Below, piece by piece: positions 8,118 through 60,772 of a stretch of 64,000 nucleotides of DNA. The stretch is from Minisyncoccia bacterium (GTDB lineage Bacteria; Patescibacteriota; Minisyncoccia; Phycocordibacterales; PALSA-1337). The stretch lies in contig JBGAUV010000001.1 of assembly GCA_044228445.1 (NCBI GenBank), positions 143,827 through 207,826 on the forward strand, in the 5' to 3' direction. The position numbers were made by a program, and so were the translations under genes. Numbering within the stretch: the first letter of the stretch is position 1; every line of letters begins with the position of its first letter. The notes under the pieces were generated by a model. The model was not told the DNA's origin, did not search any database, and was given only the letters and a program-made list of their open reading frames with translations.

Positions 8118-8639
8118 TTAAGCTTGTCATGCACGGTGTGACTATACAGTCTCGGGGAAAGAAGTGGGTGAGAAACTCGATATTAATCTTAGTTTCTCCT
8201 TTACACCCGTCATATACTCCAGATCTGTGAAATGACCATAATCTATTTTCCTGTTTTCTTAACTTCGTAACCATTGTGAATGGCCACTTTAGTTGTTCCT
8301 CCAATACCCAACCATGTTCCGACTATCAGTATAGCTAGACCACCTACGATTGAGATCATAAGTTCGCTCATGTGCAGGATTATAGAGGAAAGGAAATACA
8401 AGGGTACTGGTAAATATGTAAAATACATTGTATTATTTTAGAACAATTAAATATAGAAGTAGCCTAACCCCCCAAGCAATTGGCGGCATGGCGAAGAAGT
8501 CCTATCGAGCACAGAAACCCGTCACGGGTCGCTTGATAGGCCGTATAGGGAAACTTATACGAGAGGCTTCGAGCCTCTACCGTGGCGGATTTCTGTTCAC
8601 GCCTCGGATTACAAGCCCTATCAAGCTAAAAATATCAAT

Positions 8640-43116: not shown

Positions 43117-43779
43117 TTGAATGATGTTATTCGTGCTAAAATATGTAGAGTCATTTTTATGGAAACAAAAAATATTAAAAAAATTTATTCTACAAATGAT
43201 TTTTTAATAAGATCTGTTTTGCGCGGTATTTTAGAAAAAAAACGAGAGCAATATAGAAAACAAGGTCATAAGGCAGAAATTTTTGATGAGCTTGGTGTAC
43301 AACATGGGGCAAATAGAGTTGACTACGCTATTGTGAATGGAATCATGTGTGGCTTCGAAATAAAAAGTGATCGCGACACGTTGGACCGTCTACCAGAACA
43401 GGTAAAAGAATTTAGTGAAGTATTTGATGAGTTAACTCTTGTTGTTGGAAAAAAACATCTCTATCACGCAATTCATCAGATACCAGATTGGTGGGGTGTT
43501 TGGCTTGCAAAGGAAGATGGGACTGGCTTAGTGGAGATTCAAGTTATCCGCGAGCCTCAGAAAAATAAGTACCAGGATATTAAATCCATCGCTAGATTGC
43601 TTTGGAAAGAAGAAGCTCTGAGAATTTTAGAAGAACGCAACGAAGCAAAGGGTTTAAGAAATAAATCTAGGGAAATTATCTATACAAGGATTAAAGATGT
43701 CTTTGCTTCAGAATTGGATACTTTCAAAGCAAGAGTAAGTCTTACTTTGACTTCGAGAGAAGGTTGGAGAGTTGATTAA
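43117..43779 (+). CDS. PD-(D/E)xK nuclease-fold protein (sce7726-like)
   Basis: RVDYAIVNG...GFEIKSDRD gives a D...E.K catalytic signature. Confidence 0.45.
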   Translation: MNDVIRAKICRVIFMETKNIKKIYSTNDFLIRSVLRGILEKKREQYRKQGHKAEIFDELGVQHGANRVDYAIVNGIMCGFEIKSDRDTLDRLPEQVKEFSEVFDELTLVVGKKHLYHAIHQIPDWWGVWLAKEDGTGLVEIQVIREPQKNKYQDIKSIARLLWKEEALRILEERNEAKGLRNKSREIIYTRIKDVFASELDTFKARVSLTLTSREGWRVD

Positions 43780-44857
43780 TCACCATTGTGATATGGTGAT
43801 TAATACCTGCTGTTAGCCATGTTTGAGGGCTACCAGTGGTCTTTGCATTCACGTCAGCTTTTTCATGTATATATTCATCTCCAAAACTGAAATCTTTTCC
43901 TTTGAAAAAATTCTGTCCAGCAAGAAGTTGTGCTTGTGCGGGGTACTGTTTATATCCTGCACCTTTTTTATTTTTCAGTCCTTCTCCTCTTAATACTTCC
44001 CAAGTATCTTCATTCGTATAGCGAATGCTAGCGCTCGTGTTAACCCCGACCATATGACCATAATAAATAGGGTGTTGAATCGTATAGTCAGAAAATATAG
44101 GCTTTCTAGTTATTGTTGGATTTCCAAGTATATCCTTCCAAACCTTCCAATCGTATCTTTCGATTTTGTAGTGCCCATGTTTTTCATAGTCGGATAAGTC
44201 TCTGGGAAATGAGCCTCCGGTTAGTATTACAGAACGCCATTTATCAAGATGAGGTATCAATGAAAGTTTGCTTGATACAGCTTGAGATGTCATTTGTTGA
44301 TCTACTATCTTTAAATCGATTAGAAGATCAATGTTGCTATGGTCCAAACCCTCATCTTTTATAAACTCATTTATCTTTGTCGCTGTTTCGTTGTTTAGGT
44401 GTGAATCATCAATGCGAATACACAGACCTCTATCATTAGACTTGGCAAATTTCATAGCGATTTTTTTAGTCTCAGCGTCTGCATCCGTACTTATGGCCGG
44501 AATGATATAAGTAACTGGAATGGAGAACAGATCGGACTGGTTTGCTGTAGTCAGTATCTGATCAAAAGCAGATGCACGTATATCACCATCCAAGAGGTGA
44601 ACATCAACAAAGAATGGTTCTTTGCCCCAGTGCTCAATAATGCCAGATGTTATTTCTGGTAGGTTTCTTAAAAACTTAGTCTTTGAGTCTTCAAGAATTT
44701 TTTTATAGTCAGTTTTATCAATCTTGGGTGGTGGCAAGATGAACTCAAACAATGGTGTAACGTTTGTACGGTCCTTACTGAACAAATGTTTGAGAGCTCG
44801 CGTCTCAGCTGGTCTCCATCGGATTATAGGCACGTAAGATTTTATTGGATTTTTCAT
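43742..44857 (-). CDS. Beta-protein-family (sce7725-like) protein
   Basis: N-terminus KSYVPIIRWRPAETRALKHL matches the Beta_protein family opening (YVPILK.K..E..AL); convergent with and overlapping the sce7726-like gene by 38 nt. Confidence 0.45.
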   Translation of the reverse strand: MKNPIKSYVPIIRWRPAETRALKHLFSKDRTNVTPLFEFILPPPKIDKTDYKKILEDSKTKFLRNLPEITSGIIEHWGKEPFFVDVHLLDGDIRASAFDQILTTANQSDLFSIPVTYIIPAISTDADAETKKIAMKFAKSNDRGLCIRIDDSHLNNETATKINEFIKDEGLDHSNIDLLIDLKIVDQQMTSQAVSSKLSLIPHLDKWRSVILTGGSFPRDLSDYEKHGHYKIERYDWKVWKDILGNPTITRKPIFSDYTIQHPIYYGHMVGVNTSASIRYTNEDTWEVLRGEGLKNKKGAGYKQYPAQAQLLAGQNFFKGKDFSFGDEYIHEKADVNAKTTGSPQTWLTAGINHHITMVINQLSNLLSKSK

Positions 44858-44878
44858 GTTGGGTAATTTTAATAGTAA

Positions 44879-46111
44879 TTATTTGCTAGCGAATATATCC
44901 GGGAAGAGCCATTGGACACGAGACTCAGCATTCGTAACTATTTTATTAAGGTAATAATAGTTTTGATGTTTGAAGCGAATGATTCCAGCGACTACGGATA
45001 TGTGTACACCTAACTCATTTGCAAGACTTTGTGCGGCCATAGCTGAAGGTATGACTTTTGCGGGACTGATTTCCCATTTTGCCTTCGGTAGAATAGCTTC
45101 CTCAGCAAGCTCGTCAGCTTCTTCTTCTGTATCTTTAGAACTAAACTCAACACCTTTTTTGTCTTGGAGTTTTTCATCAAAGAACGAATCAAAGTCGCCA
45201 CCATAGTGTTTGATTATGTGTGCCAATTCGTGAAGAAGGGTGAACCAGAAATTATCTAGTCGATCGTGTCTTAGAGTTAGTCCAATTATAGGATTTTCTT
45301 TTTCAGTTAATATTGCGGCACCATCGAGGTGTGTTTTAGGAAGATGGGGTTCAATAACAAGTTTGATACCTACGTCTGCTAACATTTTAATAGCTTTTCT
45401 CGGACCATCTGTGTCTACACTGAGCTTGATTAAAGCTCTCATAAAAGAAATATCTAATGAACCATGTTTATATTTAACAGGAACTTTCATTTTGTCGGCT
45501 TTCTGCACTACACGAATTTGCCAAGCAAGCAAAGCATCTTTATCGGTTAAGATTGCTGATCTGTAGCTTGTTTTTCTTAATAACGCAACAGGTTGAAGTC
45601 TTAATGATCCTAATGAAGTAAATAAGCCATCAAGCAAATCTGATTTTGTATTGTTCTTTAGTGTTTTCTTACCAAAATATCCTCGGTTTTCCATTAACTT
45701 AACAAGTCGAATATCCCAACGCTCATATTTTGAGTCTGGGTTAGCGTCAGTCTTTTGAATTAATACTTTTGCAGGTATACCGAGACCTGTTTCAAGGGCA
45801 CGTATCATCTCGAGAGATAATGGTCGTTTGCCTGAAAGTACTTCTGAGACTCTGCTACGACTACCGATGTAAGGTATTAGATCTGCTGGTTTGAGATCGG
45901 CTTGTTCCATTCGGAAATTGATAGCTTCAATGGGGGTGGGTAGTGATTGGGGGAGTGTCCTAGATTCATATTCTTGAATAAGAGTAGTAAGGAGTGTAAG
46001 TTGTTCACCTTCAACAGATTCTGGATTAGGATCAAGATTCATTAACTCCTCAACTGATTTGAGGGCGTCACGATAGTCTTGTTCGGTTTTTATTACTTTG
46101 ATGTTGTTCAT
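44879..46111 (-). CDS. HigA-like antitoxin: N-terminal HTH fused to DUF955/ImmA-like Zn-peptidase domain
   Basis: HELAHIIKH (HExxH) in the C-terminal half; immediately downstream of the HigB toxin gene. Confidence 0.65.
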   Translation of the reverse strand: MNNIKVIKTEQDYRDALKSVEELMNLDPNPESVEGEQLTLLTTLIQEYESRTLPQSLPTPIEAINFRMEQADLKPADLIPYIGSRSRVSEVLSGKRPLSLEMIRALETGLGIPAKVLIQKTDANPDSKYERWDIRLVKLMENRGYFGKKTLKNNTKSDLLDGLFTSLGSLRLQPVALLRKTSYRSAILTDKDALLAWQIRVVQKADKMKVPVKYKHGSLDISFMRALIKLSVDTDGPRKAIKMLADVGIKLVIEPHLPKTHLDGAAILTEKENPIIGLTLRHDRLDNFWFTLLHELAHIIKHYGGDFDSFFDEKLQDKKGVEFSSKDTEEEADELAEEAILPKAKWEISPAKVIPSAMAAQSLANELGVHISVVAGIIRFKHQNYYYLNKIVTNAESRVQWLFPDIFASK

Positions 46112-46118
46112 ATTTTTG

Positions 46119-46406
46119 CTAACCTATATCCCAGTTATCATATTCCTTGTGTGTGCCGACCTTTTTTATAAGCACAACCTGGTTTTTGTAGTTTATCTGT
46201 ACTAGGACTCGGTACTTATTGTGACAGATGTCGAATATTACATGCTGGTTCTTTACTAAACTTGCCTTCCTATATCTTTCCTTGAGTTCATGAGGGGTTT
46301 GCCACTTAGCATTCTCAACTTCAGCTTCCCACGAGTCTATGTGGGACCTTGCATCGGTGTGCCTCTCTTTGAAATCTTGTGTAATTTTTTTGCCTAGTAA
46401 TTTCAT
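46119..46406 (-). CDS. higB: HigB-family toxin (RelE/ParE superfamily)
   Basis: FDICHNKYRVLVQINYKNQVVLIKKVGTHKEYDNWD. Confidence 0.7.
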   Translation of the reverse strand: MKLLGKKITQDFKERHTDARSHIDSWEAEVENAKWQTPHELKERYRKASLVKNQHVIFDICHNKYRVLVQINYKNQVVLIKKVGTHKEYDNWDIG

Positions 46407-46549
46407 TTGTCACAGAAGGGTCCACTGATACATTAATAAATGTTCCCATAGTGGGAATACTATACCTAGTACGATTGGAAGTCAAGATTCTTTTCATAAT
46501 GGTCCATTTTTGATATAAAAGACCCCATAATTAGCCCCTAAATGCCCCT

Positions 46550-46804
46550 GTGTACGCTTTTCAGGCGAGGTTCGGGGGTAATTACAAACATATGATTTCA
46601 AAACAAGCGTTAGAAGAATTCAAAGAGATTTGGCGAAAGGAAAACCCTGGCCAAGATATCGACGATGCAACTGCAATGGATCAGGCAGTAGCTTTGCTTA
46701 CTCTCATGGATACAGTCTACAGACCAGTGAAGAAAGAATGGCTCGAAAAGTATAAGAGCGAAGTGGTTGAAGAAAATAGTGAAGACAAGGGTAGGGTGAA
46801 ATAA
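46550..46804 (+). CDS. Small conserved hypothetical protein (paralog of 33906..34172); 3' end overlaps a DGR-flanking repeat
   Basis: Shared motif with the other element's small ORF; last 22 nt are one copy of the AGTGAAGACAAGGGTRGGGT repeat. Confidence 0.35.
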   Translation: MYAFQARFGGNYKHMISKQALEEFKEIWRKENPGQDIDDATAMDQAVALLTLMDTVYRPVKKEWLEKYKSEVVEENSEDKGRVK

Positions 46805-47043
46805 CCTAAGGTCGTTATTTACGATAAAACTTTACAACTTGATAACGCCTGATCATGCCTGTTAACTCCTGACCGTCAATACGGTTAAATTACGGTGGTC
46901 GACCTGATAGAACAGGAAAATAACAGGTGAACTGGTCCGCAAAGAATTTGCGGTGATTACGGTCACTTAGAAGTAGTCCGAAATAGTGAATGAGACAGTG
47001 GGGTAATAGCCTAAATTACCCATATTAGTCTGTTTTATCGGTA

Positions 47044-47072
47044 TTGACAATAGTGCAATATGGGTGTATAAT
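47044..47072 (+). promoter_or_regulatory. Perfect consensus sigma70 promoter upstream of the DGR target gene
   Basis: TTGACAatagtgcaatatgggtgTATAAT (17-nt spacer); 5' UTR contains a 9-bp perfect stem GGTCATAGC...GCTATGACC. Confidence 0.65.
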
Positions 47073-47212
47073 AGTTACATAGTTCTTTGATAAGAATTGC
47101 GAGTTGGTCATAGCGAAAAGCGGCTCAATCTTGGGCCCCTCCTTGCTATGACCACACCGGCCCATAGTGCCTCCTCGGCGTAGAGGGAAACCAAAAAGAA
47201 AGGAAACTGACC

Positions 47213-47926
47213 ATGAATACCATGCTCAGCAAGGCGCTCCGCGAATTCACAACCGGACCGCTCAATCAGCTCATTGTGAACCTCGGTGGCCAGGAAGGCG
47301 ACCAATGGGAAGAGGAACTGAAGAAGTTTCTCCGCAAGGAACCCTGTTGGAGTAACGGACAGGTCGCGCAAGTGACCCAACCGAAAACCAAGCCCTCGAT
47401 CCTCGAGCTCGTCTCGACTGTCGTGGTCTCGGCAACCACCAGCAAGTTCATCGCCAAAGATAAGTTCGTGGTCAACACCAAGCGCAACGCTCCGGTGAAG
47501 ATCTCGGCAGTCTGGGACAACTTCACCAGCTGGTTCCTGTCGGGCGACGGCAAGACCGAAGACCCTATCAGCGAACAGACGCTCCGCTACCACAAATTGC
47601 GGAAGTCTTCAGTTGATGGTCCCATCATTACCGAACTGGGTGGCGAGGAGAAATCCGAAACCACTTTGACGGAAATGTTCTCCTTGATGGAGAAGCAGAA
47701 GAATGGTGAAGACGGTGTTCTCTTGAACAACGGCTACGCCAACATCTTCTACATTCGGGACCAGAATGGTGTGCTTCGCGCGGTCGACGTGTGCTGGTTC
47801 GACGACGGCTGGGACGTCGATGCGTTCTCCGTCGAGAACCCGGGCAGGTGGTCTGATGGCTACCAGGTGTTCTCTCGCAATTCTGTTCTCGAATCCTCGG
47901 AACCTTCGGCTCCGGCGCAAGCCTGA
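47213..47926 (+). CDS. DGR target (variable) protein with C-terminal variable region
   Basis: C-terminus ...GVLRAVDVCWFDDGWDVDAFSVENPGRWSDGYQVFSRN is the VR counterpart of the TR; ~55% GC in an AT-rich genome. Confidence 0.85.
   Translation: MNTMLSKALREFTTGPLNQLIVNLGGQEGDQWEEELKKFLRKEPCWSNGQVAQVTQPKTKPSILELVSTVVVSATTSKFIAKDKFVVNTKRNAPVKISAVWDNFTSWFLSGDGKTEDPISEQTLRYHKLRKSSVDGPIITELGGEEKSETTLTEMFSLMEKQKNGEDGVLLNNGYANIFYIRDQNGVLRAVDVCWFDDGWDVDAFSVENPGRWSDGYQVFSRNSVLESSEPSAPAQA
47768..47877 (+). repeat. DGR variable repeat (VR), 110 bp
   Basis: Aligns to the TR with 14 mismatches, every one at a TR adenine (AAC to GAC/TGC/TTC/GGC/TAC; AAT to GAT/TCT). Confidence 0.9.
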
Positions 47927-48243
47927 TCCTTTGTCCCTTGGACCCTTTGACCCTCGGTCTGCTTCGGCGGATTGGGGGTCAATTTTTTATATTTAAATTT
48001 CTCTTGCTATACTTATTTCCGAAATCATGTGTTACGTGACGGTTACGGCTTTCACGTCATGGTCTTAAGATATTTTTCTCGAGAGTCACACTGGGTATGC
48101 CTTGTGTGAGAGTGGGGAAAGTCTCTTCAAAAAAATAACAAGAATTGGTATATGAGATTAGCGGACTTTGAGGTCCCAGATAAAATTCAGCTGGTCATGG
48201 TTTGGCTGGCGGTGATATAGATGATCTTGTATACGATAACGCT

Positions 48244-48353
48244 GGTGTGCTTCGCGCGGTCAACGTGAACTGGAACGACGACGGCTGGAACGTCAATGCG
48301 AACTCCGTCGAGAACCCGAACAGGTGGAATGATGGCAACCAGGTGTTCTCTCG
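48244..48353 (+). repeat. DGR template repeat (TR), 110 bp
   Basis: Asn-codon-rich (AAC/AAT) copy of the VR; the enclosing ORF 48202..48483 is not considered coding. Confidence 0.9.
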
Positions 48354-48376
48354 AAACTGTTGGTTTTCTCCTCGGC

Positions 48377-48768
48377 TTAAGGTCGGGGAGTTTTTGCTTG
48401 CAAACCCTTCTTCCAACCACCAAGTTGTCGCCCTATTTCCTCAAGTTTTCCGATTAAGTCCGAGTATGTATCAGTTGGAATAATTTTACTTTCCCATGCG
48501 AGTTGTACAAAGAACTTCACAATATCAAGTTTTGTGATGGCTTTGTTTAATATTGGTATTTTGTGTTCAGGTGGGAGATAAGAAAGACAGAATGTGTATT
48601 CAAGTACATCAAGAAAAGCCTGTTCAATTCTGTTTCCAATTCCATACCGCTCGACTTTCGGAAAATCACGATAGATAGAGAGCCAAAAACGATATGTCTC
48701 TTTCGATTTGAGAATTACCTGTGGTAATTCTCGGGGGGGGTAATATGATCCTTATTAGTATGAGTCAT
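48377..48768 (-). CDS. avd: DGR accessory variability determinant (Avd), antisense to TR/RT; frame interrupted at a G8 tract
   Basis: Minus-strand translation ...ELPQVILKSKETYRFWLSIYRDFPKVERYGIGNRIEQAFLDVLEYTF...VKFFVQLAWESKII...IGKLEEIGRQLGGWKKGLQAK is an Avd four-helix bundle; no canonical in-frame start, but the ATG at 48768..48766 joins this frame if the 48733..48740 G8 run were G9. Confidence 0.65.
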
Positions 48769-49755
48769 GAGTATAAGAATATCATATCCATCAAAAATCT
48801 ATGCGATGCGTGGACCGAATTTATATGTGGCAAGAAATCTAAAAAGGACGTTGCTGAATTTTCTCTGAATCTCTCTCAAAACATTTTCAAATTGCACGAG
48901 GAACTGCGAACAAAAACGTATAGACATGGTGCATACGAAGCTTTTTCGATAAGTGATCCGAAACCGAGAAGTATTCACAAGGCTACGGTCCGAGATAGAT
49001 TATTGCATCATGCTATTTACAGGATTTTGTATCCCTATTTTGATAAAAAGTTTATTTATGATTCTTACTCCTGTCGACAGTTCAAAGGAACACATCGAGC
49101 GTTAAATCGGTTCAATGATTTCGTGATGAAAGTATCACAAAGTAATAGCAGGGCATGCTGGGTTTTGAAATGCGATGTAAGAAAGTTTTTCGCATCTATT
49201 GATCATGAAAAGCTTATTGAAATATTCAAGCGACATATTAATGATATGGAAACGATCTGGCTTGTTGAACGCATTGTTGAGAGTTTTCAAAGTACTGGTC
49301 CAGGAAAGGGTTTGCCTTTAGGTAACCTGACCTCGCAACTCTTGGTAAATGTTTACATGAATGAGTTCGACCAGTTTGTGAAGCACAAGCTCAAAGCTAA
49401 GTATTATATTCGGTATGCCGATGACTTCGTTATTATGCACCATGAGAAAGATGTGTTGGTGGATATTCTGCCAAAGGTCCAGAGCTTTCTCAGTGAGCAA
49501 CTAAAGCTGTCTCTTCATCCAGATAAGGTGTTTATAAAGACAGCTTCATCAGGCGTAGATTTTCTGGGCTGGGTCCATTTTCCGCACCATCGAGTGATAC
49601 GGACAACAACAAAAAATCGTATGTTCAAGAAAATCAAAGATTCTCAAGAAAAGCCGGAAGTCGTCCAGTCGTACCTCGGACTTTTGAGTCATGGTAATGG
49701 TTGGAAATTGAAACAGAGAGTTAAGGATAAAATAGTGAAGACAAGGGTGGGGTAA
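48745..49755 (+). CDS. DGR reverse transcriptase
   Basis: RT motifs LKCDVRKFFASIDH, LPLGNLTSQLLVNVYMNEFD (DGR-type [LI]GxxxSQ), YIRYADDFVIM (YxDD), LHPDKVFI, FLGW; start taken at ATG 48745 (or 48760). Confidence 0.9.
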   Translation: MILISMSHEYKNIISIKNLCDAWTEFICGKKSKKDVAEFSLNLSQNIFKLHEELRTKTYRHGAYEAFSISDPKPRSIHKATVRDRLLHHAIYRILYPYFDKKFIYDSYSCRQFKGTHRALNRFNDFVMKVSQSNSRACWVLKCDVRKFFASIDHEKLIEIFKRHINDMETIWLVERIVESFQSTGPGKGLPLGNLTSQLLVNVYMNEFDQFVKHKLKAKYYIRYADDFVIMHHEKDVLVDILPKVQSFLSEQLKLSLHPDKVFIKTASSGVDFLGWVHFPHHRVIRTTTKNRMFKKIKDSQEKPEVVQSYLGLLSHGNGWKLKQRVKDKIVKTRVG

Positions 49756-50254
49756 CCCAATAAATTTACCCGTAATAACGGGAAATTAACGGGAAGTCAC
49801 TTTTTTGCAACATAGTGAGTGAGAGTGTGGGGTAAGACTGATAAAGCAGTTAAAAAGCAGTCTCGCACTCCGTTGTTAATACAACGTGAAAACAACGGCA
49901 GTTATTGCCGTTAAAAAACAGTGAAAAAACGGTTAACACCCGCCCTTTAAAAAGGGTAAAAAAGGGCGTAGTTATTATAAATACAGATCTGATACAGAGA
50001 AGAAATTACTTTTTAGATACAGTGAGTGCTGGTGTAGGGTAACAATCTTTGAAGCTTGGAATGTAGATCGTAGCATCGTCGATTTTTCGGAAGATTTCTG
50101 TAACTTGAGCGACCACGCGACCCCAAGAAATGTCTCAAAAATATAGAATTATTATTAGTATGTTTTAATAAAAAACAGTTTTAAATTAATTTGATTTAAT
50201 CTAATACTAAACAAAATTCTATTGTATAATATAAACATAATATTATATTAAAAA

Positions 50255-59896: not shown

Positions 59897-60772
59897 ATGG
59901 ATAAAATAATTGATATAACAAAACCAAGTAAAGGCTATAGTCTAATAGATTCTGGTGATGGGGAAAAGCTAGAGAAATTCAGTGAATATATATTGAGAAG
60001 ACCAGATCCACAAGCTCTTTGGAAAAAGAGACTTGATGAAAAAGAATGGAAAAAGGCCAATGCGAGTTTTGAAAGAAATGAAGCACAAGCTGAATGGAAG
60101 TATAAAGATAAAAAACTAGATAAATGGTCTATAGATTTTTCTGATTTAAAATTTTGGATAAAACCAACAGCCTTTAAACATACTGGGATATTTCCTGAAC
60201 AAACAGTTAATTGGGATTGGACTAGAAAAATTATAAAAGAAAATATTGATAGGAAAGAAATAAATGTATTAAATTTATTTGGTTATACAGGTGGAGCAAG
60301 TTTGGCTTGTGCTCAAGCAGGAGCAAAAGTAGTTCATGTTGATAGTTCAAAATCAGCAATAACTTGGGCAAAAGAAAATGCAGAAATATCAGGTTTACAC
60401 GATAAACCAATAAGATGGATACTAGAAGATGTAAGACTTTTTGTTGAAAGAGAAATAAAAAGAGGGAATAAGTACGATGCCATAATTATGGATCCTCCAG
60501 CTTTTGGACATGGAGCAAATGATGAAGTTTGGAAAATAGAAAATGATTTAATTCCTTTAATAGATAAATGCATTGAAATTTTAAATGAAAAACCTTTATT
60601 CTTTTTGATAAATGGTTATTCAGCAGGTTATTCTTGTATAGCATATAAAAATATTTTAGATGTTTTGGTTAATAAATTCGGCGGAAGTACAGAAATAGGG
60701 GAATTGGCTATACAAGAAAATGATTCAAATCGTTTATTGCCTTGTGGTATTTTTGCTAGATGGAAAGGGTAA
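59897..60772 (+). CDS. Class I SAM-dependent methyltransferase (RlmI/RlmL-like rRNA MTase)
   Basis: LNLFGYTGGASLACA...IIMDPPAFG. Confidence 0.7.
   Translation: MDKIIDITKPSKGYSLIDSGDGEKLEKFSEYILRRPDPQALWKKRLDEKEWKKANASFERNEAQAEWKYKDKKLDKWSIDFSDLKFWIKPTAFKHTGIFPEQTVNWDWTRKIIKENIDRKEINVLNLFGYTGGASLACAQAGAKVVHVDSSKSAITWAKENAEISGLHDKPIRWILEDVRLFVEREIKRGNKYDAIIMDPPAFGHGANDEVWKIENDLIPLIDKCIEILNEKPLFFLINGYSAGYSCIAYKNILDVLVNKFGGSTEIGELAIQENDSNRLLPCGIFARWKG

Follow-up and report, generated by a model that had tools for sequence, protein, structure and literature searches.

The element described here is a diversity-generating retroelement (DGR) in a 64,000-nt stretch of DNA, hereafter the window, from a Minisyncoccia bacterium (GTDB lineage Bacteria; Patescibacteriota; Minisyncoccia; Phycocordibacterales; PALSA-1337): positions 143,827-207,826 of the forward strand of contig JBGAUV010000001.1, assembly GCA_044228445.1. 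It consists of a target gene with a variable repeat (VR), a template repeat (TR), an accessory gene, avd, and a reverse transcriptase (RT) gene, and the first codons of avd contain a simple-sequence repeat whose number of units places the body of Avd in or out of frame. The explanation that best accommodates the data, and that we consider likely, is a DGR of the type found in the candidate phyla radiation (CPR), with a separate TR RNA and with its activity gated by the avd repeat. Behind it stand the anatomy of the cassette, the adenine-specific divergence of VR from TR, the hypervariability of AAY codons in the target family, covariation in the RNA, the position and diversity of type of the repeat, and the polymorphism of its length among otherwise identical contigs, all of them direct observations.

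No natural system for diversifying proteins is more extreme than the DGR, and in few groups, if any, are DGRs as numerous as in CPR bacteria; to our knowledge, next to nothing has been established about how DGR activity is regulated. We compared the window with about 130 related loci, all the data being consensus assemblies from short reads. All DGR parts are present in the window, in the order target, TR, avd and RT, with avd on the minus strand and the others on the plus strand:

47213..47926, plus strand: target gene, 237 aa; swappable helical N-terminal part at about residues 1-55, conserved core at about 57-225
47768..47877, plus strand: VR; shared 3' end CCAGGTGTTCTCTCG, then a fixed VR-specific base at 47878
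48244..48353, plus strand: TR; 26 adenines, ten AAY codons in the mutagenised span
48377..48768, minus strand: avd; ATG at 48768-48766, 9 codons, C8 tract, Avd body at 48732-48380, stop at 48379-48377
48733..48740, no strand assigned: simple-sequence repeat, putative phase-variation tract; G8 on the plus strand, C8 in avd
48760..49755, plus strand: DGR RT; conserved start M-S-H at 48760, alternative ATG at 48745

A repeat of variable length at the start of avd

The avd gene is identified by matches to bAvd (PF22296; 47.4 bits, cut-off 40) and to PHROG 3206, "Avd protein of DGR" (E=2e-17); the match to the NCBIfam model for DGR Avd (DivGenRetAVD) scores 62.5 bits, under its cut-off of 80. Read on the opposite strand, its ATG is a conserved His codon of RT (position 3-7), so that avd and RT start back to back and overlapping (48768 versus 48760 in the window), the first 9 nt of RT lying over the avd start. 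With eight units in the tract the window avd is out of frame: 9 or 12 C would restore the frame, one extra G:C pair being sufficient. The Avd frame itself is open from 48745 down to 48380, with no internal stop, and offers no ATG, GTG or TTG until codon 76. The initial annotation had described a complete DGR; the parts are all there, but avd is on the opposite strand and, at G8, is not in frame with the one start codon that is plausible for it. The window element is thus probably silent at present, and able to revert.

Apart from this G8 tract, the window has no G/C run of 7 or more. A simple repeat occupies the same position in 82 of 83 related loci: poly-G of 6-15 nt in at least 60 of them, and otherwise (GA)n of 16-34 nt, (GT)n, (TC)n or (CTGG)9. 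Across 387 kb of related loci, 57 of the 59 G/C runs of 8 or more are at the avd-RT junction. Because quite different repeat units are found at one position, it is apparently repetitiveness itself that is selected, not a particular sequence. In every locus an ATG upstream reads into the tract, and only 5 of 82 have an ATG within 25 codons after it.

Contigs that encode the same RT protein differ in the length of the tract. Those sharing RT protein P0294 have tracts of 12, 12, 11, 11 and 9 G; only n=9 provides an ATG-initiated Avd, of 119 aa (MTHTNRDHITPPRELPQVILK...), and n=11 gives an 18-aa stub. Those sharing P0296 have 10, 10, 10, 11, 11 and 12 G: n=10 specifies an Avd of 130 aa, n=12 leaves a stub of 18 aa, and n=11 is in frame too, via a GTG two codons before the tract. 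Elsewhere these contigs are 99.8-100% identical, except for L136 (98.3%), which at positions 1-115 has VR-like sequence where its sister contigs have TR, with 16 consecutive A-to-N differences, and which probably arose by chimeric assembly at the VR/TR repeat. In one pair of contigs with identical RT, all three differences are in or beside the tract. Close relatives of the window with identical flanks have 8, 9, 10 or 11 G, and in-frame avd genes with the same N-terminus as the window's are found in L132, L133 and L137. The avd lengths given by gene callers flip between 123-124 aa and 57-58 aa because tract length moves the gene in and out of frame. Unit number, then, differs between close genomes and sets the frame, as it does in phase-variable genes. 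The avd tract carries the signature of a contingency locus, and it looks like an on/off switch that gates DGR mutagenesis.

One further feature adjoins the tract:

48710..48732, no strand assigned: 10-bp perfect hairpin (GAGAATTACC-TGT-GGTAATTCTC) abutting the tract, inside the avd codons for RELPQVIL

It is confined to the subfamily that includes the window, with compensatory variants in L025 and L027 and further variants in L037, L049 and L066.

Weighing the frame switch against other explanations

Several points weigh against a frame switch. The overall in-frame fraction, 28 of 82 loci, is that expected by chance. In the window subfamily, whose ATG stands at 28 nt from the tract, the lengths initially seen were limited to n=8, 10 and 11, all out of frame, and the in-frame n=9 has been found once (L132); the other lineages seen with an ATG at 28 nt have tract lengths that are all out of frame, these loci being interrelated and the statistics correspondingly weak. 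Such an excess could reflect a strong preference for OFF, or additional production of Avd through slippage on the C-run, whether of the ribosome or during transcription. Short-read assembly can misjudge the length of a homopolymer, and the lengths given here are taken from consensus assemblies only. Finally, the link of the tract, and even of Avd, to CPR DGR activity is a putative one, drawn from sequence.

A function unconnected with a frame switch, in which the tract tunes transcription or translation of RT, or Avd is made whatever the length of the tract, because RNA polymerase slips or the ribosome shifts frame on the C-run, appears to us unlikely. The tract is indeed 4-30 nt upstream of the RT start, with a TAnnnT hexamer right after it in many loci, and in the window subfamily out-of-frame lengths predominate and the 10-bp hairpin abuts the C-run as in frameshift signals; but (GA)17, (GT)12, (TC)17 and (CTGG)9 stand at the same place, share no common sequence function and are too long for a promoter spacer, none of these repeat types is known as a site of slippage or frameshifting, most of the clade lacks the hairpin, and in-frame versions yield a conserved N-terminal peptide from the ATG. 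The idea that poly-G serves as RT ribosome-binding site or promoter spacer was set aside as unlikely in general, given the non-G repeats at the same site. We find it more improbable still that the element is decaying, avd having lost its start or frame so that the cassette diversifies nothing and the VR/TR differences are relics. The lack of an in-frame start before codon 76 in the window avd would fit this, as would two loci that do seem to have decayed, L001 (6001-7309) and L002 (4720-6028), orphan cassettes with target, VR, leader, TR and the last 48 avd codons and with RT absent within 5 kb; such orphans may be either decayed DGRs or targets served in trans, and their VR/TR mismatches (21 of 21) are still at adenines. 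In the window, however, the avd body is intact, conserved and free of internal stops, the frame "defect" sits at a tract conserved in position across 82 loci with sister contigs back in frame, and RT, TR, leader and target are intact and under constraint. Least credible, to the point that we hardly entertain it, is that the differences in tract length are sequencing or assembly artefacts laid over a constant sequence: two contigs (L119 and L120) do end inside the G tract, and the whole data set is of short-read consensus type, but replicate samples agree (L116-118 all 11, L121 and L122 both 10, L124-127 all 10), lineages differ by up to 4 nt, 12 loci have non-homopolymer repeats at the same site, and artefact would not put 57 of 59 long G/C runs at one gene junction. 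The frame switch remains the reading that we prefer.

Layout and distribution of the element

With its order of target-VR, TR, (avd) and RT, the window element is a chromosomal DGR of CPR/Patescibacteria type; the DGR itself is a further member of a catalogued class, and an ordinary representative of it. The same arrangement, TR, reverse-strand avd and RT with the target upstream on the RT strand, is seen in 10 genomic loci and in all 72 of the metagenomic loci that retain the region upstream of RT. Thirty genomic loci, all in metagenome-assembled genomes of Patescibacteria, carry a relative of the target, and ten of these have the complete cassette (target, about 350 nt, TR, avd on the minus strand, RT). 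Several genomes have extra target copies without RT (L012 with L027, L007 with L016, for example), as expected for remote targets. A hairpin search of viral contigs gave no match, which is consistent with a cellular element. Taken as a whole, the initial annotation was correct as observation and essentially so as interpretation, some of its points being corrected here.

Adenine-specific divergence of VR from TR

Exact, ungapped comparison of VR with TR, 110 bp at an offset of 476, gives 14 mismatches, each of them at a TR adenine that is the first or second base of an AAC or AAT codon, as read in the target frame; the 14 adenine-only differences first reported for this pair are thereby confirmed exactly, no mismatch falling outside adenines. 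As 26 of the 110 nt of TR are A, the chance of 14 out of 14 mismatches on A is 5.3e-11. The mutagenised span in VR, 47786-47861, corresponds to residues 192-217, and of the ten AAY codons in the TR span nine are altered in the window VR. The TR itself is 100% identical in L010 and L014. Extending the repeat by three bases would take in a 15th, A-to-C difference at 47878 (VR CGCAAT, TR CGAAAC); it is the same in 12 of 12 related cassettes, and is therefore read as the fixed 3' boundary of VR and TR, of the kind termed IMH/IMH* (initiation of mutagenic homing), and not as mutagenesis.

Confinement of mismatches to adenines is general: it is found in all 12 cassettes of the same family and in most of 48 more distant ones. 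Among 45 target homologues the AAY columns each contain 10-14 different residues, against a mean of 3.2 elsewhere, and homologues that are 91-95% identical differ mainly at those columns. These patterns are indirect evidence that the target family is being diversified.

The RT matches RVT_1 at 96.5 bits, and its GLPLGNLTSQ and YADD motifs are invariant in 10 relatives (alignment A4). The DGR-type motif 4, LGNLTSQ, and the YADD noted at the outset are thus borne out, the catalytic YxDD being kept on realignment. Matches to NCBIfam models are all under their cut-offs; the libraries hold no dedicated DGR-RT model.

A predicted TR RNA

Between the target and avd are the following:

47947..47990, plus strand: intrinsic terminator after the target gene; 16-bp stem and T run, conserved in alignment A3
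47986..48013, plus strand: putative TR RNA promoter, from promoter scan; extended -10, TGCTATACT, at 48005-48013
48018..48243, plus strand: structured leader RNA of about 225 nt directly 5' of TR; three helical domains
48368..48395, plus strand: hairpin and U-run, 14 nt after TR; includes the avd stop codon on the other strand

In the -10 region of the TR RNA promoter, TATACT is invariant and TG nearly so (12 loci). From the promoter position, the RNA would start at about 48020, just before leader helix 1. A covariance model of the leader (R1) matched 69 loci, 67 of them over its full length, and the match always ends at TR; cassettes with unrelated targets are among those matched. In the 69 sequences 91.9% of cells are paired and 57 of 65 pairs show double changes; the covariation score is 0.696, where shuffles give 0.225 and slid controls about 0.10. 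The values for the leader are somewhat inflated, the alignment having been fitted to the model, and an independent MAFFT alignment yields the same helices. The hairpin after TR also shows compensatory changes across loci, within a UUUCUCYC...GRGAGUUUUG frame that is clade-wide, and it may be the terminator of the TR RNA, a counterpart of the Avd-binding stem-loop, or both. From this arrangement we infer an independent TR RNA of about 375 nt, comprising leader, TR and 3' hairpin. Pairing of the invariant GAGAG motifs of the leader with the invariant CUCUC at the 3' end of TR, which would form a duplex of primer:template type, was also considered and was rejected, no consistent compensatory change appearing in more than 60 loci.

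At curated thresholds Rfam finds nothing in the window cassette or in 32 related loci. The leader scores 33.5 bits against RT-9 (RF03080), E about 1e-3 in a 441-nt search, which falls short of the gathering cut-off of 46.1; nor does RT-9 reach threshold in any of the 32 related loci scanned. The first hairpin of the leader and its flanking conserved stretches align to the whole RT-9 model, but the leader is over twice the length of RT-9, with two covarying domains in addition, and the resemblance is a sub-threshold one. RT-1 to RT-19 are structured RNAs near RT genes, of which only RT-10 has been tied to a DGR (the BPP-1 spacer); others of the series have been speculated to belong to DGRs (Weinberg et al. 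2017, PMC5737381).

The target gene and its protein

Two features precede the target gene:

47044..47072, plus strand: target promoter, consensus sigma-70 TTGACA-17-TATAAT, 12/12 match
47104..47154, plus strand: long hairpin in the 5' untranslated region (UTR) of the target; minimum free energy -45.4 kcal/mol, z=-3.45 versus shuffles

The perfect consensus promoter had been remarked on in the initial annotation, as had structure in the 5' UTR, and both stand: the promoter matches at 12 of 12 positions, and the UTR folds better than shuffled sequence and shows compensatory changes in relatives. Similar strong promoters, with TGnTAnAAT, lie upstream of the target in relatives. In the UTR hairpin 11 of 23 pairs are kept through double changes (8 relatives), and in the window and its relatives (alignment A7) it contains an internal GAAAAGYGGCU...GGCC motif and is followed by a strongly conserved ribosome-binding region, AGAAAGGAAAnCUGACCAUG. 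It has no Rfam match. It could be a regulatory RNA that binds a protein or a ligand.

The VR had been placed at the extreme C-terminus of the 237-aa target. It is near the C-terminus, at residues 186-222, with 15 residues following it. The target has no Pfam, NCBIfam or PHROG match and no significant PDB sequence match by profile search, and Pfam scans of 114 family members turned up nothing significant. Its homologues number 950 at E<=1e-3, and the best 120 are 69-100% identical and all unnamed; profile search extends the family to 3,305 clusters at 50% identity, with the core (about 57-225) conserved and the N-terminal part variable. An AlphaFold2 model built on an alignment of 114 sequences, representatives at 50% identity, has a predicted local distance difference test score (pLDDT) of 93.4; a model from 45 close homologues had a pLDDT of only 45, and the diverse alignment was used instead. 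The predicted fold has an N-terminal three-helix part and an alpha/beta core in which VR forms the last three strands. Foldseek searches of PDB and BFVD with the target returned nothing significant. The nearest known systems for such a protein are the DGR targets of C-type-lectin fold (Mtd, 1YU0; TvpA, 2Y3C) and the FGE/EgtB family, and the modelled fold appears only remotely C-type-lectin-like. Reading of the target sequence revealed no signal peptide-like or hydrophobic membrane-spanning N-terminal stretch (no prediction was run), and the protein is probably cytoplasmic.

Two family members have unusual compositions: P0121 (926 aa) has five tandem copies of the target core domain, and one other carries a Ribosomal_L14 domain (E=1.6e-14). 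The latter echoes the ribosomal-protein links of CPR DGRs noted by Wu et al. 2018 (PMC5758913).

GC content and exchange of the target-leader-TR block

Base composition, overall and at third codon positions (GC3), changes along the cassette:

Target outside VR: GC 0.54, GC3 0.74
RT: GC 0.39, GC3 0.41
avd: GC 0.38, GC3 0.31
Neighbouring host genes: GC 0.28, GC3 about 0.15

The target and TR had been put at about 55% GC, with avd and RT matching the host. The first value holds (0.54 for target, 0.58 for TR), whereas RT and avd are intermediate, some 10 points above the host. The contrast recurs in all 30 genomic relatives (target GC 0.45-0.60, RT GC 0.27-0.45). It is seen again in metagenomic cassettes whose RT belongs to the same clade, most of them with targets that tblastn does not relate to that of the window: target GC exceeds RT GC in 43 of 43, by a mean of 14 points in GC and 20 in GC3, and target GC3 correlates with RT GC3 at r=0.19. 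Being clade-wide, the contrast cannot be explained for the target by a single recent import.

Segments of the cassette differ widely in their nucleotide identity to the window:

L014: target core 91%, spacer 98%, leader 96%, TR 100%, avd 85%, RT 67%
L027: target core 92%, spacer 94%, leader 94%, TR 97%, avd 68%, RT 66%
L005: target core 81%, spacer 92%, leader 96%, TR 95%, avd 58%, RT 66%
L016: target core 73%, spacer 90%, leader 93%, TR 97%, avd 91%, RT 86%

Synonymous divergence (dS) of the target is 0.26-0.42 where that of RT is saturated, and the reverse is found in L010 and L016. Together, the segment identities and dS indicate that the target-leader-TR block is exchanged independently of the avd-RT core. 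The initial annotation's suggestion that the target/TR module was acquired apart from RT is therefore upheld as regards separate histories; the GC contrast that it rested on is a trait of the clade and not evidence for it.

We hold it to be rather doubtful, though less so than any of the readings set against the frame switch, that a GC-rich donor recently supplied the GC-rich block to a resident RT/avd pair of AT-rich composition. The GC step is sharp, and the module is 91-100% identical to those of L014 and L027 (81-96% for L005) where RT is about 66% identical, with the target dS of 0.26-0.42 against saturation in RT. But the same contrast is present in every relative, whatever the GC of the host, and in 43 of 43 clade cassettes with other targets; the GC of RT and avd, too, exceeds that of the host, and L010 shares the entire 46522-50130 block, in a different context. 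Target GC3, moreover, barely tracks that of RT. A persistent force is therefore needed and not one import. Candidates for what keeps the block GC-rich are selection, GC-biased gene conversion at a recombination-prone module, and continual exchange.

Neighbouring sequences

The block shared with L010 runs from 46522 to 50130 and comprises an 84-aa open reading frame (ORF), the DGR and about 375 bp downstream; it is 94-98% identical to L010 3629-7264, in a different neighbourhood. Within it, 47128-47428 (the distal 5' UTR and the first 72 or so target codons) is replaced by unrelated sequence, which points to a swap of the N-terminal module and fits the variable N-terminus across the target family. 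The 84-aa ORF, at 46550-46804 on the plus strand, has no family match and accompanies the DGR block in the window as it does in L010; at the 3' end it runs into a copy of a 22-nt motif, AGTGARN4RNRGTRGGGTRA, which has 6 matches in the window against 0.21 expected:

46778, 46985 (46985..47006), 49734, 49814, 50021 and 35220, plus strand: copies of the 22-nt motif, the first five bracketing the DGR block

RT itself ends within the copy at 49734, which provides its final 7 codons (IVKTRVG) and its stop. Elsewhere the motif occurs only in L010 (3885 and 6868), the closest relative; its confinement to these two led us to reject it as a DGR feature, and it may be a lineage-specific recombination or insertion site.

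Directly upstream of the block, at 43742-46406 on the minus strand, are genes for a HigB-family toxin (95 aa), a helix-turn-helix and M78-peptidase protein (ImmA/IrrE-like, 410 aa) and a "Beta protein" (PF14350, 371 aa). All are about 39% GC, some 10 points above the host, suggesting an accessory island. Farther off, a LOOT RNA (RF03000, a structured RNA family) at 8461-8578 on the plus strand scores 76 bits, well over the gathering score, and another is near a related DGR (L060, 5018-5153). At 60272-60366, plus strand, ARAGORN reports a 95-nt tRNA-Thr(TGT) where the Rfam tRNA model reports none at threshold; this tRNA may contain an intron or be otherwise unusual.

Model and implications

In the model that we favour, an RNA of about 375 nt (225-nt leader, 110-nt TR, 3' hairpin and U-run) would be transcribed from its own extended -10 promoter; RT and Avd would copy its TR into cDNA, misincorporating opposite adenines; and the cDNA would replace VR at the 3' end of the small GC-rich target gene. 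The outcome would be randomisation of ten AAY codons on a surface formed by a beta-hairpin, in a domain only remotely like C-type lectins. This mutagenesis would be gated by the hypermutable repeat at the start of avd, each unit gained or lost shifting the frame in which the Avd body is read. What we infer in this scheme are the ends of the RNA, cDNA synthesis and homing, the requirement for Avd, and slipped-strand mispairing of the tract at a useful rate. That it holds for a large CPR clade, with an avd contingency locus switching the DGR on and off stochastically, a TR RNA of about 375 nt with a 5' protein-binding structure, and an exchangeable GC-rich target-leader-TR block, seems to us slightly more probable than the opposite.

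If the avd switch is real, one mutational switch gates another mutational system, and cells hedge their bets between diversifying and keeping the current variant. It would also account for the many CPR avd genes annotated as fragments, and would make tract length modulo 3 a simple predictor of active DGRs in a metagenome. The 5' leader would mean that the RNA architecture of the phage BPP-1 DGR is not universal, and it sets the construct for reconstituting CPR DGRs in vitro or for engineering them. The target family, with more than 3,300 clusters at 50% identity, unannotated and probably cytoplasmic, is a large family of interest, and both the GC-richness and the modular exchange of the target-TR block are testable. 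The avd tract, the 5'-structured TR RNA and the GC-rich exchangeable target-TR module are all properties of the whole clade, and the avd switch is apparently undescribed: in the literature searched we found no description of the avd repeat tract, of a structured leader 5' of TR or of clade-wide GC-rich targets, and no paper that ties a DGR or avd to homopolymers or phase-variable repeats (Paul et al. 2017 was not covered by this search).

Comparison with known systems

The core of the window element conforms to what has been described for CPR. Wu et al. 2018 (PMC5758913) reported that 90% of CPR DGRs have an "Architecture B3, TR-(avd)-RT", and a CPR-restricted "clade 2" of DGRs has targets without recognisable or membrane domains (Roux et al. 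2021, PMC8144416). Gene order, reversed avd and Patescibacteria hosts are alike in both comparisons, as are the small, domainless, anchorless targets, the VR at the C-terminal end and the AAC-rich TR; there is no core difference.

Contingency loci with simple-sequence repeats are found in Neisseria, Haemophilus, Campylobacter and Helicobacter, for example as poly-G/C in the frames of surface-structure genes. The avd tract resembles them in being a short-unit repeat early in the frame, polymorphic in length between near-identical strains and shifting the frame by one unit; it differs in that the gene is a hypermutation accessory factor and not a surface antigen, that the hosts are CPR bacteria, and that the putative switching is read here from sequences.

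The DGR of BPP-1 (mtd-avd-TR-brt), in which all genes are on one strand, is the experimental paradigm (Handa et al., PMC6182149; bioRxiv 10.1101/2023.10.23.563531). There the 140 nt 3' of TR contain an Avd-binding loop, the priming A56, a stop duplex and an RT-binding stem, and only 20 nt are needed on the 5' side (bioRxiv 10.1101/2023.10.23.563531). The window element shares with it adenine-specific mutagenesis, the I/LGxxxSQ and YxDD motifs of RT, a stem-loop just after TR, an IMH-like 3' boundary of VR, and Avd, a four-helix bundle, as partner. We know of no repeat tract in the avd of BPP-1. The large conserved structure of the window RNA, by contrast, is 5' of TR, the 3' side consisting of one hairpin and a U-run followed by antisense avd; and the target is a chromosomal, apparently cytoplasmic protein of 237 aa in place of a phage tail fibre.

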